Shown: positions 1,856 to 43,787 of the stretch, one piece after another | Numbering within the stretch: position 1 is the first letter of the stretch | Layout: each line of letters starts with the position of its first letter | Source of the DNA: a virus | Taxonomy: Duplodnaviria; Heunggongvirae; Uroviricota; Caudoviricetes | IMG/VR virus record: IMGVR_UViG_2693429668_000006 | DNA: 64,000 nt | Reading direction: 5' to 3' (one strand) | The notes under the pieces: model-generated | What the model was told of the DNA's origin: nothing | Database searches by the model: none | The model's input: the letters and a program-made list of their open reading frames with translations, nothing else | Made by a program: the position numbers and the translations under genes

Positions 1856-2446
1856 CTACTTGTTATAAACAAAACCAATATCTTTCTTGTGAGGCATATC
1901 TGCTGCTGAAAAAGCTGCGATCTTCGCGAGTCGATCACATATTTCATTTTCACGATGCCCGGCGTGACCTTTAACCCACTTCCAGCGAACATTATGTCGA
2001 CTTGCGGCCTCATCCAGACGCTTCCACAGATCAACATTCTTTACCGGTTTTTTGTCAGAAGTCATCCATCCATTGCGTTTCCACCATTTCATCCACTGTG
2101 TCATGCCGTTTTTCAGATACTGGCTATCAGAGTACAAAATAACGTTGCATGGATATTTCAAACGCTCCAGCCCGATAAGTGCCCCCATCATCTCCATGCG
2201 GTTATTGGTGGTGCTATGAAAACCATCTGAGAACTCGCGTTCCTCACCACCATACTGGAGAACTATACCGTAACCGCCCGGGCCACCCGGATTTTTAAGG
2301 CAAGAGCCATCACTGAAGATTTTCACGGTTTTAAGCTGGGGATTGAACTCTACGACAGGCGTTGTGGAATTGGTGCGGGGAGAATTTTTGTTTTTGTCAT
2401 TTTTGCGAGTTTTTGCTTGCGATCGGGCTGGTGTCTTCGTCGTCAT
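1856..2446 (-). CDS. rnhA: ribonuclease HI
   Basis: RNase H domain motifs (FSDGSC..., ...[14 protein letters not shown]); ATG at 2446 with GGAG RBS; longer track ORF start rejected. Confidence 0.85.
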
Positions 2447-3031
2447 ATAAACTCCTGAATCAAGCGCCGCGCCGATTTTTTTTCCTCGCGCGTGCGCACA
2501 CGCGTGCGTGTTAATAATTATTAAAATAAACAAATTACTTCCCAGAACAGGTTTTTATAAACCTGAACTGAACGAACGAAGTGAGTGAAGTTCACCTCGA
2601 ACGAAGTGAGAGGTTGTCTTTTCAGGTAATACTCTCCCAGGGAGGTGAGTACAAAATTTCCTCACCAACCTGGTCGTTTCATAACCTGAAAAGTTATGAC
2701 CTAAGTCTACTGCCAGCTTAGGCTTGGGAAGTTATGGATGACAGCACCCCAGAACCGAGATCTTCCCACACTTTATGAAGGGGAGTACTGGATTCAACCT
2801 CTCGAAACACCCCAGACTCGACAATCATAAAGTGACCCTTGTCTCTGCTCACTTTGGTTCCCCCTTCCCCAACCCCTAAACGGTGCCGGTTCTACGCTGG
2901 TAGTGAGCTTTTTTAAACCTGACGCCAGTGACGCTTACCCCCACCCATCAGGTCGAGCCTCCAATCTACGACTGGAAACTATCAGATCTTAGCACTTACA
3001 ATTCACTTTATGAATAGTTTGTACTTATCTA

Positions 3032-3286
3032 TCATTTCGATTGATTATTTTTTCGACCATGTAGTTGAACATTCAAGGCAAACACCTCGTTGATCAACTC
3101 ACCTAAAAGCTGTTCAACAAGTTCGCGATGCTCCCCAAGATGCAAGCACTTAATTGCCCATTCGTACAAGTTGAAAGCCTGCTCACGATCTTTCATCATT
3201 TCACGAGCCTGGGCCAGAAAATCGCTCTCTACGAGCGCAACGACATTAGTCGGGTATGACATGTTGGTTTCCTTAAAGTGGTTCAT
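3032..3286 (-). CDS. hypothetical protein (84 aa)
   Basis: ORF track, same strand as neighbours. Confidence 0.4.
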   Translation of the reverse strand: MNHFKETNMSYPTNVVALVESDFLAQAREMMKDREQAFNLYEWAIKCLHLGEHRELVEQLLGELINEVFALNVQLHGRKNNQSK

Positions 3287-3448: not shown

Positions 3449-4042
3449 CTAAGCAGCCTTCTTTGATGGTCTTTTTTTCCTGATCACATTCGCAGGATCA
3501 TACCCTCCCAGACTTTTCATGACGTCCAAAGGGATCTTGCTTATAGAGTGCCCAGCGTCCTGACAGAATCCTCGAAAAACAACGAGCATACTGCCACCTG
3601 GGTTGATGTTTACTTCTACCTGACCCAGATTTACGTCAGGCTCGACAAACGCTACGCGGCCACCAGACAGAATAATCGTCTCATTCGCACACTCTGTTGC
3701 ACGCTCATACCACTTTGTATCTAGGGATTGAGGAATTAGCATCACTGTTGTAACTCCACGAGCCTGCTCACGTATAGCCGCATCAATCCAGGGGGAGATT
3801 TTGGAGTAGGGTGGATTGAGGAAGGCAATTGTACCTGGCTGTCCCCATTCAGATTTCAAAGCATCACGCTCAACGCCTATGAAATTAGGCAGCTTTGCAT
3901 TGTCCTTGTTGCAGGCAACGTCAACATCAAATGTCACTCCAAGATAACGTTGAATGGCAGAAAACAGCCAGTCAGGTGTTCTCCAGAGGTCACGAAGAGA
4001 GTTGTCGCGCTTTCGCTGTTTGATTTTTTCGGCTGCAATCAT
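3449..4042 (-). CDS. DNA N6-adenine methyltransferase (phage Dam-like family)
   Basis: NPPY catalytic motif (FLNPPYS), WRTPDWLF N-terminal motif typical of phage N6A-MTases. Confidence 0.65.
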   Translation of the reverse strand: MIAAEKIKQRKRDNSLRDLWRTPDWLFSAIQRYLGVTFDVDVACNKDNAKLPNFIGVERDALKSEWGQPGTIAFLNPPYSKISPWIDAAIREQARGVTTVMLIPQSLDTKWYERATECANETIILSGGRVAFVEPDVNLGQVEVNINPGGSMLVVFRGFCQDAGHSISKIPLDVMKSLGGYDPANVIRKKRPSKKAA

Positions 4043-19396: not shown

Positions 19397-20491
19397 ATGT
19401 CCACAAAAAATAAAAAAGGTAAAAATAACAAAGAAGTAGAAGATAACATCGACAACTTTGAAGAAGGTTCCCTTGAATTGTACACAGGGGAACTTGTCCC
19501 TAATAGCAACAATACAGTCCAACCAATTGCGTTGATGCGACTGGGGTTGTTCGTCCCCACGCTTAAGGGAACAAAATACAGTAAACGTAACAAGCCAAAT
19601 GAGATCGATGCTTCAAAGGAGCTTGTCCAGCTCGAAGTAGCCCGTTCTGAAGGCTATTCCGATATCAAGATAACCGGTCCTCGCCTGGACATGGATCATG
19701 ATTTCAAAACGTGGGTGGGCGTTGTGCGTTCGCTGGCAGAATACGGCGAACCTAATGGTCGTGTCGAGTTAAGCATCACGAAATTTGCGAAGTTTTGTGG
19801 CTATCCATCGTCACAGATCCGCAAAACACTCCGCGACCGGCTTACAAACAGTCTTTTGAAGATCATGCGTACAACTCTGTCTTTCCAGAGAACGTATGAA
19901 GAAAAGAACGTCGACGGCTCTAACAAGATCTCGCTTCTGATGGTGCACCTCATCAATAGCGTGGACTACAACGAGCAGAAAGATACGGTGGTGTTCTATG
20001 CAGAACCGAAGCTGGCCGAACTATATCGCTTTGACCATAAGGTTCTTTTGCAGTTAAAGGTTATCAATAAGCTACCACGCAAAGAAACAGCACAGGCTCT
20101 GTACACCTTCATCGAAAGTCTTCCAACCAAGCCTGCGCCGGTATCGCTTGCTCGATTGCGTGCGCGACTCAATTTGAGTAGCAGGAATGTCAGCTCGCAG
20201 AATCAGACTATACGTAACGGCTTAAAAGCTCTCCAAGATTTGGGCTATCTCGAATACAGCGAGATTAAGCGTGGGCGGTCGATCTATATCCAGATTCACA
20301 GCCGCAATCCAAAACTCAAAGTCGCACCGCCAAAACCTGAAGACATCGAACCCAAAAAACCAGATGAGAAAGCCGGGGAAATTGATGCCAAACAGAACAT
20401 TATCAATAAGATAACCGAACTTTCGCAGAATTTGACGCCTGAAAATATCAAGATGATTGAGATCCTTTCCAATAGTCTCAAACTGCTTTGA
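19397..20491 (+). CDS. repA: iteron-associated replication initiator (RepA-like), 364 aa
   Basis: plus-strand gene bracketed by iterons; ATG at 19397 with RBS; longer track ORF starting inside iterons rejected. Confidence 0.6.
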   Translation: MSTKNKKGKNNKEVEDNIDNFEEGSLELYTGELVPNSNNTVQPIALMRLGLFVPTLKGTKYSKRNKPNEIDASKELVQLEVARSEGYSDIKITGPRLDMDHDFKTWVGVVRSLAEYGEPNGRVELSITKFAKFCGYPSSQIRKTLRDRLTNSLLKIMRTTLSFQRTYEEKNVDGSNKISLLMVHLINSVDYNEQKDTVVFYAEPKLAELYRFDHKVLLQLKVINKLPRKETAQALYTFIESLPTKPAPVSLARLRARLNLSSRNVSSQNQTIRNGLKALQDLGYLEYSEIKRGRSIYIQIHSRNPKLKVAPPKPEDIEPKKPDEKAGEIDAKQNIINKITELSQNLTPENIKMIEILSNSLKLL

Positions 20492-20608
20492 TATGCTGTC
20501 AGCGGTGAAATGTATGCTATCAGCGGCTATTTTTCTGAAAAGTATGCTGTGAACGGTTAAAGATATGCTACCAGCGGTATAGTGAGATAAACGTATGCTG
20601 TGAGCGGT
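20491..20608. repeat. downstream iteron cluster 1 (5 copies)
   Basis: copies at 20491, 20512, 20542, 20563, 20593 with alternating 21/30-bp spacing; first overlaps rep stop codon. Confidence 0.75.
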
Positions 20609-20768
20609 AAATCATCTATCACCACTCAATGCTCTTTTATACCTCCCCAGTGGTTACTAACCTCGAAGAGTGCATTCCATATAGGTTTGCGCTCACTAAC
20701 ATTCTATTCCCATTGCGCTGATTACTTGTAGTGAAAGGTATTTATTGCCTGCTGCTCCCTGATAGAAC

Positions 20769-21023
20769 GTATGCTGTCAGCGGTGTTTTATTGAGGAATT
20801 TTTGTTTGGATATGCTATCAGCGGTAATTAATGGCATATGTCAGACCTTCGTATGCTGCCAGCGGTAATTTTGTTCTGGTTATACCCATACCGGTACACA
20901 TTATTCATGCAATGTCTTAAGTATGCTGTCAGCGGTAAAAAATCGAGTAAAGTATGCTGTGAGCGGTGAGATAGACTCTCGATATGCTATCAGCGGCAGT
21001 TGATTGTGTATGCTGTCAGCGGT
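20769..21023. repeat. downstream iteron cluster 2 (7 copies)
   Basis: copies at 20769, 20810, 20851, 20921, 20952, 20982, 21008. Confidence 0.75.
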
Positions 21024-21070
21024 GACGACTATGAAATATGACTGCGGAACGTGCCGCAGTCAGTTTGCAT

Positions 21071-30102: not shown

Positions 30103-30431
30103 TGATGCCCGCCAATTGGCGGGCATCTGTTCTCTGTAAAGGTGTCTGGCATCGTCTGGTTCGTTAACGTTTACTAAACCAATGGTGACAAAAATTAGTT
30201 ATCTTTGAAAAATAAAGGTTGCATGAAAAGAAGGGGTATGCGTTAATAGCATCGTTGGTTTGCAAGACAGACCTTATGTAAGCAGTTTTAGTAAAGCAGT
30301 CTCAGTTCAGTGTTATCTTCTGATTTCCCTTCTTCGTGAGTCTCCTCCTTAAGTGCCTAAGTAAGTCCCAATCTATACAGATCAAATTCTCGCCGCACTA
30401 TGTGGCTCACAAAATTAAGAAGGTAATATCT

Positions 30432-30647
30432 ATGTCTAATAAAATGACTGGTTTAGTAAAATGGTTTAACTCTGATAAAGGCTTTGGCTTTATTTCTCCT
30501 GCTGATGGCAGTAAAGATGTTTTTGTACATTTTTCGGCAATTCAGAGTAATAATTTCCGCACTTTGGAAGAAGGCCAGCAGGTCGAATTCTCTATCGAGA
30601 ATGGGGCTAAAGGCCCAGCAGCAGCAAATGTCGTTGCTCTAAGCTGA
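30432..30647 (+). CDS. cold-shock protein (CspA family, 71 aa)
   Basis: RNP1/RNP2 motifs KGFGFI and VFVHF; GLVKWFN start; ~190-nt leader upstream. Confidence 0.85.
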
Positions 30648-30925
30648 TTCAACGCTGATGATCCTCATTTCTACAATAACGAAGACGGTGTAAGCCTGAG
30701 TGGATAGATTTGTAGGATTGTACAAGTTGAATAAATTAGCATGGTAAGGCCATGCTAATTAAATCGACACAACGGCCAGTTTATTCCATAAAAGTGAATT
30801 GCCCATTGTGGCGAAATGCGGGGTTGCCGCATGAATAGTCAAAGGCAGAAGCTAACTGCCGGCATGGCAAAACAAAGTGCGTAAGAGGAGTGACTTCCTC
30901 AACAAGCGCCATAATTCTTTATAAA

Positions 30926-43540: not shown

Positions 43541-43616
43541 TGGTGCCGGTTAACGGACTTGAACCGCTGGCCATTTGCTTACAAAGCGACTGCTCTACCA
43601 ACTGAGCTAAACCGGC
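43541..43616 (-). tRNA. tRNA-Thr (anticodon UGU), two mismatches in anticodon stem
   Basis: 76 nt; acceptor/D/T arms canonical; loop TTTGTAA; possibly pseudo-tRNA. Confidence 0.6.
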
Positions 43617-43620
43617 AATT

Positions 43621-43707
43621 TGGTGGGGAGTGATGGAGTCGAACCACCCGAGTCGCAATGACAGTAGATTTACAGTCTACACCGCTACCTCTACGGACTA
43701 ACTCCCC
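43621..43707 (-). tRNA. tRNA-Tyr (anticodon GUA)
   Basis: 87 nt; anticodon arm GTAGA-CTGTAAA-TCTAC; long variable arm. Confidence 0.8.
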
Positions 43708-43712
43708 TAAAT

Positions 43713-43787
43713 TGGCGATGGTGGGTGGATTCGAACCACCGATCAGTTGGTTAACAGCCAACTGCTCTACCGCTGAGCTACACCATC
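43713..43787 (-). tRNA. tRNA-Asn (anticodon GUU)
   Basis: 75 nt; anticodon arm GTTGG-CTGTTAA-CCAAC; T-arm GGTGG-TTCGAAT-CCACC. Confidence 0.85.

Follow-up and report, generated by a model that had tools for sequence, protein, structure and literature searches.

A probable structured noncoding RNA gene upstream of RNase HI in SSU5-like phage-plasmids

The DNA studied here, referred to as the window, is a stretch of 64,000 nucleotides from an SSU5/pHCM2-like phage-plasmid. Over the 1.7 kb around the locus of interest, it shares 98.8% identity with Escherichia phage Cyrano (pLF82) and 78 to 82% with Salmonella phage SSU5 and with Klebsiella phage-plasmids. A sequence-only reading had drawn attention to positions 2447 to 3031, a gap without ORFs that carries a GC-rich palindrome and a repeat, and had suggested a noncoding RNA, an origin-like site, or a degraded gene. 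We asked which of these the gap contains.

The gap is as described. It harbors no ORF of 60 aa or more, only mechanical ORFs of 30 to 46 aa, and the gene downstream of it indeed encodes RNase H, all genes of the locus being read on the minus strand (Table 1). The true start of rnhA is the ATG at 2446, according to the annotation of relatives, and a listed 225-aa ORF (1856 to 2533) is a TTG-extended reading of rnhA. By our own scan, the stretch without ORFs of at least 60 aa covers 498 nt (2534 to 3031). The gap had been called unusually long for a spacer, and only one ORF-free stretch of the window, that at 20492 to 21037, is longer. The ORF upstream of it encodes a predicted three-helix protein for which we found no Pfam match, no PDB fold match, and no PHROG function. 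In SSU5, the locus is embedded in a long row of DNA metabolism genes, all read in one direction (NrdAB, ThyA, DHFR, exonucleases, Dam, and RNase H), that leads to Ant, the anti-repressor gene ant being located four genes downstream.

We next compared the gap with its homologs. Sixty-nucleotide bins over 2550 to 2910 were 95 to 100% identical to eight relatives, in a comparison that took in SSU5, pHCM2, and elements of Klebsiella, Cronobacter, Enterobacter, and Citrobacter; for dam, the small ORF, and rnhA, identity was only 65 to 88%. The conserved core measures 421 nt, runs from 2957 to 2537 on the minus strand, and is 95 to 100% identical across six genera, again against 65 to 88% for the flanking genes. 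BLAST with the gap alone returned 687 PLSDB records, mostly at 80 to 99% identity, and gave 89 to 94% identity to plasmids of Salmonella, Klebsiella, Enterobacter, Cronobacter, and Citrobacter. The adjacent 269-aa gene was found in 694 PLSDB records (518 at 60 to 80% identity) and rnhA in 681 (366 at 60 to 80%). With 687 records versus 694, the element appears to be nearly universal in SSU5-like phage-plasmids. The core is single copy in the window and was present in 232 of 5,426 complete E. coli genomes, nearly always on these plasmids, with two chromosomal places besides. Since it is essentially always on these plasmids in E. coli, we could rule out that it is a copy of a host-derived RNA.

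More divergent copies were found on contigs whose version of the small ORF is itself divergent. One of them (L254) was at 82% identity, and three others (L084, L158, and L086) were at about 68%. The small-ORF family comprises only 29 clusters, all from Enterobacteriaceae. A metagenome scan via the small ORF added four loci of the L084 clade and retrieved only known clades, and a pattern scan of viral contigs with GATCTYGRTTCTGGGRT returned only known clades and chance matches. Similarly, only 3 of the 64 matches to the 20-mer ACCTCTCACTYCGTTCGAGG in genome contigs were homologs (Buttiauxella and Kluyvera). The element thus appears to be restricted to SSU5-like phage-plasmids of Enterobacteriaceae, a narrow family that limits comparative inference. 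We left out one contig from Logan (SRR8137545, L090): it shows the locus with C-to-T conversion, was apparently assembled from bisulfite-treated reads, and would have given false divergent homologs in the covariation analysis.

Two related contigs (L088 and L089) kept the small ORF but had unrelated sequence in the slot of the conserved core. They belong to a distant relative with 70% aa identity in the small ORF and two RNase H genes downstream. The slot sequence of L088 (3226 to 3938, 713 nt) folds far better than its shuffles (z = -5.8). We considered it as a remote homolog and rejected this, as it had no BLAST or profile similarity to the core, no Rfam match, and no match in the plasmid database; it may be a nonhomologous RNA in the same position.

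An RNAalifold consensus of 35 close relatives contained 153 pairs, with 98.6% of the cells paired. Double changes affected 13 pairs, compared to 2 to 4 in slid controls, and 93 cells were compensated, compared to at most 14. In the alignment of 16 sequences from three clades, down to 68% identity, we obtained 136 pairs in 20 helices (95.7% paired), and 39 of the 136 pairs showed compensatory double changes. This number was 4 to 9 in slid controls and 18.1 ± 2.8 in the shuffle control, none of the 500 shuffles reaching the observed value, and the covariation score was 0.226 versus 0.126. These data show that the gap folds as a three-domain, 20-helix structured RNA kept across three clades. Double changes were found in all three domains, namely in H1 (2 of 3 pairs), P1 (5 of 15), and H3 (3 of 7) of the 5' domain; in H10 (11 of 20), H12 (3 of 7), H15 (5 of 10), and H17 (2 of 11) of the central domain, which is 98 to 100% identical across genera; and in two pairs of H20 in the 3' domain.

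Such high identity could also arise without function if a recent recombinational sweep had spread one allele, and these elements are indeed mosaic, with breakpoints at the tail of the core. The divergent clades, at 82% and 68% identity, nevertheless keep the fold through 39 compensated pairs, and the boundaries of high identity coincide with structural boundaries, so that we regard a sweep as extremely unlikely.

The fold also assigns a strand. The alifold energy was -107.1 kcal/mol for the minus strand and -65.9 kcal/mol for the plus strand, and ribosum scoring gave -260 and -222, respectively. Many invariant G.U pairs of the minus strand would read A.C on the plus strand, and in P1 a U.G pair becomes U-A. 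Both the G.U pairs and the energies favor the minus strand.

Table 1. Positions of the genes, promoter elements, and RNA domains at the locus (numbering of the window)
Feature	Position	Strand	Remarks
RNase HI gene (rnhA)	1856-2446	-	Pfam RNase_H, E = 2e-45; usual, nonobligatory downstream neighbor of the RNA
3' tail	2476-2511	-	Alternating purine/pyrimidine GC tract (2511-2487), GAGG, A8 run (2483-2476)
AU/U-rich linker, UAAUUUGUUUAUUUUAAUAAUUAUU	2512-2536	-	Follows the core; candidate site of 3'-end formation or RNase E site
3' domain	2537-2607	-	Closing helix H18, hairpins H19 and H20; holds the repeats 2573-2585 and 2598-2610
Central domain	2609-2839	-	Closing helix H9; four hairpin arms, H10/11, H12-14, H15, H16/17
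5' domain	2843-2957	-	Closing helix H1, long hairpin P1 (2954-2916), branched arm H3-H8
5'-terminal hairpin P0 (CCAGUC-gua-GAUUGG)	2961-2975	-	Pairing kept, sequence differs per clade; 4 of 7 pairs with double changes
Extended -10, TGcTAAGAT	2986-2994	-	TG at 2994-2993, hexamer at 2991-2986
-35 hexamer, TTCATA	3009-3014	-	TT invariant in an otherwise variable spacer
76-aa ORF (PHROG 5343)	3032-3262	-	Constant upstream neighbor of the RNA
Dam methylase gene	3449-4042	-	Annotated near the gap

The repeat described earlier as tandem belongs to this structure. The 13-nt sequence CGAACGAAGTGAG does occur exactly twice, but the copies are direct repeats with a 25-nt spacing and not strictly tandem. 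No third copy was found in the 64 kb at up to two mismatches, except for one unrelated site. In the main clade, the sequence after the first copy pairs with the second copy to form hairpin H19 (CGAGGUGA/UCACUUCG). The divergent L084 clade lacks the second copy and instead builds a GAGG-GAAA-CCUC hairpin. The repeat is a clade-specific way to build one RNA hairpin and a peripheral feature of the element.

Upstream of the core, the spacer that separates it from the small ORF is only 43 to 60% identical, and within it the motif TG-n-TAnnAT is invariant in all clades (TGaTAAAAT in SSU5, TGcTAACAT in L084 and L086, and TGtTAACAT in L254). It lies 17 nt from a -35 element whose equivalents are TTTAAA in SSU5, TTTACG in Klebsiella, TTTACC in L084, and TTGTTT in L254. 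This conserved motif predicts an extended -10 sigma-70 promoter at 3014 to 2986, the geometry of which would place the transcription start at about 2979 on the minus strand, roughly position 78,528 of Cyrano. The sequence of the -35 region, TTCATAAAGTGA (3003 to 3014), recurs in both strands of helix H10 (2825 to 2835 and 2769 to 2779); this repetition is confined to the E. coli clade, is not conserved in SSU5 or Klebsiella, and may be due to chance.

At the other end, conservation drops at about 2537. Nearly all clades have a U-rich run behind the 3' domain, the weakest being that of Klebsiella, and a GCGCGAG(G/A)-A-rich motif is found in the tail of all clades. The GC palindrome reported earlier is located in this tail: it is present, with overlapping arms at 2487 to 2498 and 2493 to 2504, and sits in a perfectly alternating purine/pyrimidine tract of 25 nt (2487 to 2511), while the longest such run in 50 shuffles was 21 nt (mean, 16). 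The RNA fold of this tract is not superior to that of shuffled sequence (z = -0.26), and its length differs among relatives through 9- to 10-nt deletions and one expansion. A role as terminator or selected hairpin was rejected: whichever strand is read, the U-run is located on the wrong side, and shuffles are not surpassed in folding. The palindrome is peripheral, lying outside the conserved core in the variable 3' tail. We found no canonical intrinsic terminator on the minus strand, and the tail hairpin is at shuffle level, which speaks against a discrete RNA with a defined 3' end.

Is the element transcribed? Expression data were available from a study that re-analyzed RNA-seq of E. coli LF82 carrying Cyrano (OV696614; reads in GEO GSE154648) and that lists CYRAN_81 among the prophage genes expressed in the lysogen, at 12 times the Cyrano background (PMC9928086). 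CYRAN_81, annotated as a "hypothetical protein" of 44 aa (135 nt), corresponds to window positions 2718 to 2852, inside the central domain. The mean normalized count in LB was 117 for this gene, standing for the RNA core, 9.5 for CYRAN_80, the upstream small ORF, and 8.4 for CYRAN_82, the downstream RNase H gene, with log2(FPKM+5) values of 6.8 to 10.35, 3.1 to 5.8, and 2.6 to 5.0, respectively (PMC9928086, S1 Table). For CYRAN_81, log2(FPKM+5) was 6.8 to 6.9 in LB overnight, 9.0 to 9.3 after 1 h and 6.9 after 6 h in medium, and 8.2 to 9.0 after 1 h and 10.3 after 6 h in macrophages, where the neighbors were at about 5 at 6 h (PMC9928086 and its S1 Table). From these tables we calculated that the interval exceeds its neighbors about 13-fold in LB and about 35- to 40-fold inside macrophages, where its level is induced about 11-fold. 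The counts, which are given per annotated gene and not resolved to nucleotide ends or strand, show a discrete and abundant transcript of the lysogen. Since CYRAN_81 is high and both neighbors are low, the RNA would have its own promoter and a 3' end before rnhA. The 76-aa small ORF is not co-expressed with it in the per-gene counts (PMC9928086). We had considered the small-ORF product as a Rop-like partner of the RNA, a comparison that was uninformative given the missing fold match and co-expression. Apart from this expression table, we found no literature on an RNA at this locus in SSU5 or pHCM2.

The authors of that study read CYRAN_81 as a protein "moron," and the RNA nature of the locus went unrecognized (PMC9928086). 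A small-protein gene, or the remnant of a gene, would account for the CDS annotation in Cyrano and for the listing as an expressed moron. This ORF is, however, unannotated in other relatives, and stop-free stretches change frame between relatives, with five to eight frame-breaking indels per clade pair. Substitutions are distributed 55/54/48 over the codon positions, without periodicity, and third positions are as invariant as the others. We therefore give a protein-coding gene or its remnant a minimal probability. On the same observations we reject the degraded gene suggested earlier, as the frame-breaking indels and missing codon periodicity are accompanied by the lack of a conserved ORF and by purifying selection at all positions.

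Of the three suggestions of the sequence-only reading, the noncoding RNA is the one with strong support: the region is better conserved than the flanking genes, its base pairs covary, the strands differ in signal, the promoter is conserved, and published data show expression. The checks it had proposed bear this out in two cases: the lysogen counts place the gap interval well above its neighbors, and homologous regions show a core conserved above the flanking genes with compensatory changes. The third, an Rfam/Infernal scan, left the gap without a match in Rfam 15. The case it had set against an RNA, an unconserved and untranscribed gene remnant, is not what we see, since the region is conserved, expressed, and without coding signature.

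We also considered that the element could be conserved as DNA, as a single-strand initiation signal, a protein-binding site, or Z-DNA. The alternating purine/pyrimidine tract would fit this idea, a C-GAA-G mini-hairpin module in the repeat reads most favorably on the plus strand, and folded single-stranded DNA signals can covary too. But the asymmetry between the strands (numerous G.U pairs would turn into A.C if the opposite one were read), the conserved promoter directly upstream, and the abundance and discreteness of the RNA all point to RNA, and the purine/pyrimidine tract, of variable length, is not part of the conserved core. A DNA-level element is thus highly unlikely.

The RNA and rnhA are not inseparable. 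In four sequences (L008 from Citrobacter, L010, L084, and L259), rnhA was swapped for cargo or other genes and the RNA was retained; the replacements include betT (L010, pE70-A) and unrelated ORFs. In plasmids with rnhA replaced, the tail is kept up to ...AAAAATCG. A recurrent recombination breakpoint lies just past the RNA tail (...GAGG-A-run-TCG) in L008, L010, L084/L258-L261, and L259. Since the breakpoint follows the tail where rnhA is replaced, promoter, RNA, and tail form a unit kept together, independently of rnhA. The position after the tail looks like an accessory-gene slot downstream of a promoter active in lysogeny. In the divergent L084 clade, the second gene downstream of the RNA is Tad2-like (anti-Thoeris; L084, 4605 to 4916), which hints that the neighborhood of the RNA collects anti-defense genes.

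This arrangement bears on the main rival to a trans-acting RNA, which we rank next after it and consider rather unlikely, namely, a cis-acting leader or attenuator. The RNA would then be the 5' leader of a unit running into rnhA and downstream genes (Ant in SSU5). Transcription would be ended early in the lysogen, by the fold of this leader or by a small RNA that processing releases, and the downstream genes would be kept off as by P4 CI RNA and P1 c4 RNA. Indeed, the promoter looks constitutive and is not followed by a terminator before rnhA, the leader is abundant while the downstream genes are silent in the lysogen (a switched-off attenuator would look alike), and the unit heads a variable gene slot. 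Like the immunity RNAs CI of satellite phage P4 and c4 of phage-plasmid P1, it is made constitutively in the lysogen from the head of a unit with silent downstream lytic genes and belongs to a phage-plasmid element, with the SSU5 anti-repressor gene ant four genes downstream. However, those RNAs are antisense RNAs of about 70 to 80 nt with defined complementary targets, while the three-domain core found here, at 421 nt, is constrained at every position and far larger than known attenuators. We found no complementarity above chance to downstream or other window sequences: across the 64 kb, matches of 11 to 13 nt occurred at the chance rate, and none was located in the downstream operon. Rfam gave no match to c4 or another leader, and the L084 clade lacks the repeat/complement/repeat layout reminiscent of P4 seqA-B-C. 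Furthermore, the RNA is invariant while the downstream gene varies (rnhA, betT, or unknown proteins), and we found no constant downstream gene family of the kind that goes with a gene-specific cis-regulatory leader (riboswitch, T-box, or thermometer).

The neighboring RNase H gene raises another possibility, that the RNA is a replication primer or part of a lytic origin, of the ColE1 RNA II or the T4/mitochondrial R-loop type. A G-rich transcript would form an R-loop, RNase H would trim it at the A-run, and a polymerase would extend it. The element resembles ColE1 RNA II in several respects: its size is about 500 nt, it has a promoter of its own and an elaborate fold, it contains G-rich segments (GGGUGGGGG and GGGGUUGGGGAAGGGGG), and it adjoins the RNase HI gene, which supplies the RNase H connection. 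In its tail, an A-run lies beside a GC-rich stretch, and the order GC tract, GAGG, A8, UCGGCGCGGCGC resembles the ColE1 transition site. Unlike for ColE1, we found no RNA I-like antisense gene and no RNAI match on either strand. The replication proteins of the family include DnaQ, DnaB, primase, ligase, and a polymerase of the DnaE type, but not Pol I, for which SSU5 has no gene. Moreover, rnhA is dispensable for retention of the RNA, the L084 clade has not kept the G-runs as runs, and the RNA is abundant in the noninduced lysogen at a copy number of only 5.5. Origin hallmarks are equally lacking in the gap, which shows no GC-skew inflection and no DnaA, IHF, or 13-mer motifs. The origin-like site suggested earlier fails for the same reasons, the gap containing only two repeats, one of them clade specific. 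An iteron- or DnaA-type origin would call for at least three iterons, DnaA boxes, and an AT-rich unwinding element next to a rep gene, a definition that the gap does not fit.

Iterons are instead located about 18 kb from the RNA gene, at 20490 to 21038, where at least 11 copies of an iteron of about 22 nt with the core TATGCTGTCAGCGG form two clusters in a 546-nt ORF-free gap. By approximate synteny only, this array would adjoin the "replication helicase" gene of SSU5, and it is thus probably the plasmid-mode origin or an incompatibility region. Taken with the points above, this makes a primer at the RNA locus very unlikely.

We then compared the element with known RNA families. At the gathering threshold, Rfam 15 matched only cspA and three tRNAs in the whole window, all elsewhere. 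At E ≤ 10, region 2300 to 3200 gave only noise far below gathering scores, and at E ≤ 1 the divergent clades L084, L086, and L254 had no match on the RNA element. The test covered 6S, tmRNA, RNase P, group I and II introns, GOLLD, ROOL, OLE, HEARO, raiA, c4, RNAI, and JUMPstart. Among these, 6S RNA offers a parallel for the missing terminator. In E. coli, ssrS is co-transcribed with ygfA without a canonical terminator between them, and the ends of 6S RNA come from processing; 6S RNA is also abundant, regulated by condition, and much better conserved than neighboring genes. The RNA described here is likewise an abundant, condition-regulated noncoding RNA directly upstream of a protein gene, without a canonical terminator between, so that its ends too would have to arise by processing, and is conserved well above its neighbors. 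In contrast to 6S RNA, it has no Rfam 6S match, is about 2.5 times longer, resides on a phage-plasmid, and forms three multibranched domains instead of a rod with a central bubble. With the large structured RNAs that phages and prophages often carry (GOLLD and ROOL, and also OLE, raiA, and HEARO), it shares a length above 400 nt, several domains, covariation support, and a mobile element as carrier. It has no homology to any of these in Rfam 15, its host range is narrow (Enterobacteriaceae), and it is expressed in lysogeny and is not known to be lysis associated.

With conservation, fold, strand, promoter motif, and discrete lysogen expression shown, we think it probable that the gap is an undescribed structured noncoding RNA gene on the minus strand, acting most likely as a discrete trans-acting RNA. 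In our model, host sigma-70 RNA polymerase would start near 2979 from the extended -10 promoter (3014 to 2986) and read the gene in the same direction as its neighbors. The transcript would open with a protective 5' hairpin and fold into three domains (2957 to 2843, 2839 to 2609, and 2607 to 2537). Its 3' end would form somewhere from the U-rich linker to the GC tract/A-run (about 2536 to 2476), before rnhA, resulting in an RNA of about 445 to 500 nt, depending on the exact ends. It would accumulate in the plasmid state while the surrounding DNA metabolism genes stay silent, and its level would go up inside macrophages. The RNA would act folded and stable, most likely by binding a conserved host or phage factor and not by simple antisense pairing. 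A trans-acting role in the lysogen, be it maintenance, immunity, or host modulation, is what we infer as most likely.

More tentatively, and with somewhat less than even confidence, we suggest that the element represents a new class of large (about 450 to 500 nt), three-domain, trans-acting RNAs that function as RNA only and are expressed in lysogeny, either as an immunity or maintenance regulator or as an RNA "moron," with a folded RNA-protein or catalytic mechanism in place of antisense pairing. As an RNA moron, it could change host physiology, given the about 11-fold induction in macrophages. The locus is among the few transcribed in dormancy, and its signal rises in macrophages, which makes the RNA a candidate for regulating host behavior or the lysogeny/plasmid state. 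Few bacterial or phage noncoding RNAs exceed 400 nt and have complex folds backed by covariation, and every class found to date has been biologically unusual. The one proposed here was previously undescribed and is now misannotated as a hypothetical protein or left unannotated. About 4% of complete E. coli genomes contain an SSU5/pHCM2-type phage-plasmid. Such elements, which often bear resistance cargo, are also present in Salmonella Typhi (pHCM2) and in numerous isolates of Klebsiella and Enterobacter from the clinic.

Several side observations were made during this analysis. The minus-strand sequence ACCTCTCACTTCGTTCGAGG (window 2595 to 2614) had 64 exact matches in one-genome-per-species contigs (L091 to L154), compared to an estimate of about 2 by chance. 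The matches came from unrelated phyla and archaea and were often multicopy and near contig ends. Those outside homologs share a hairpin module of about 25 nt, with sibling variants such as ATTTCGACCGAAGGGAGAAAT; on the other strand it reads as a 5-bp stem, GA-N-C-GAA-G-N'-GA, and the stem again. Forty of 61 were intergenic, the orientation was not fixed, and some copies in Bacilli MAGs lay inside a long ORF. For this module, we found no Rfam family and no literature.

In L254, a long AT-rich hairpin (1336 to 1455) lies upstream of the small ORF and is matched spuriously by models of miRNA precursors from plants and animals. Elsewhere in the window, three tRNA genes are clustered on the minus strand (43544 to 43787). 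Finally, plus-strand positions 30254 to 30672 match the Rfam cspA thermoregulator over its full length (185.7 bits); the phage-plasmid carries a cold shock gene with its RNA thermosensor.
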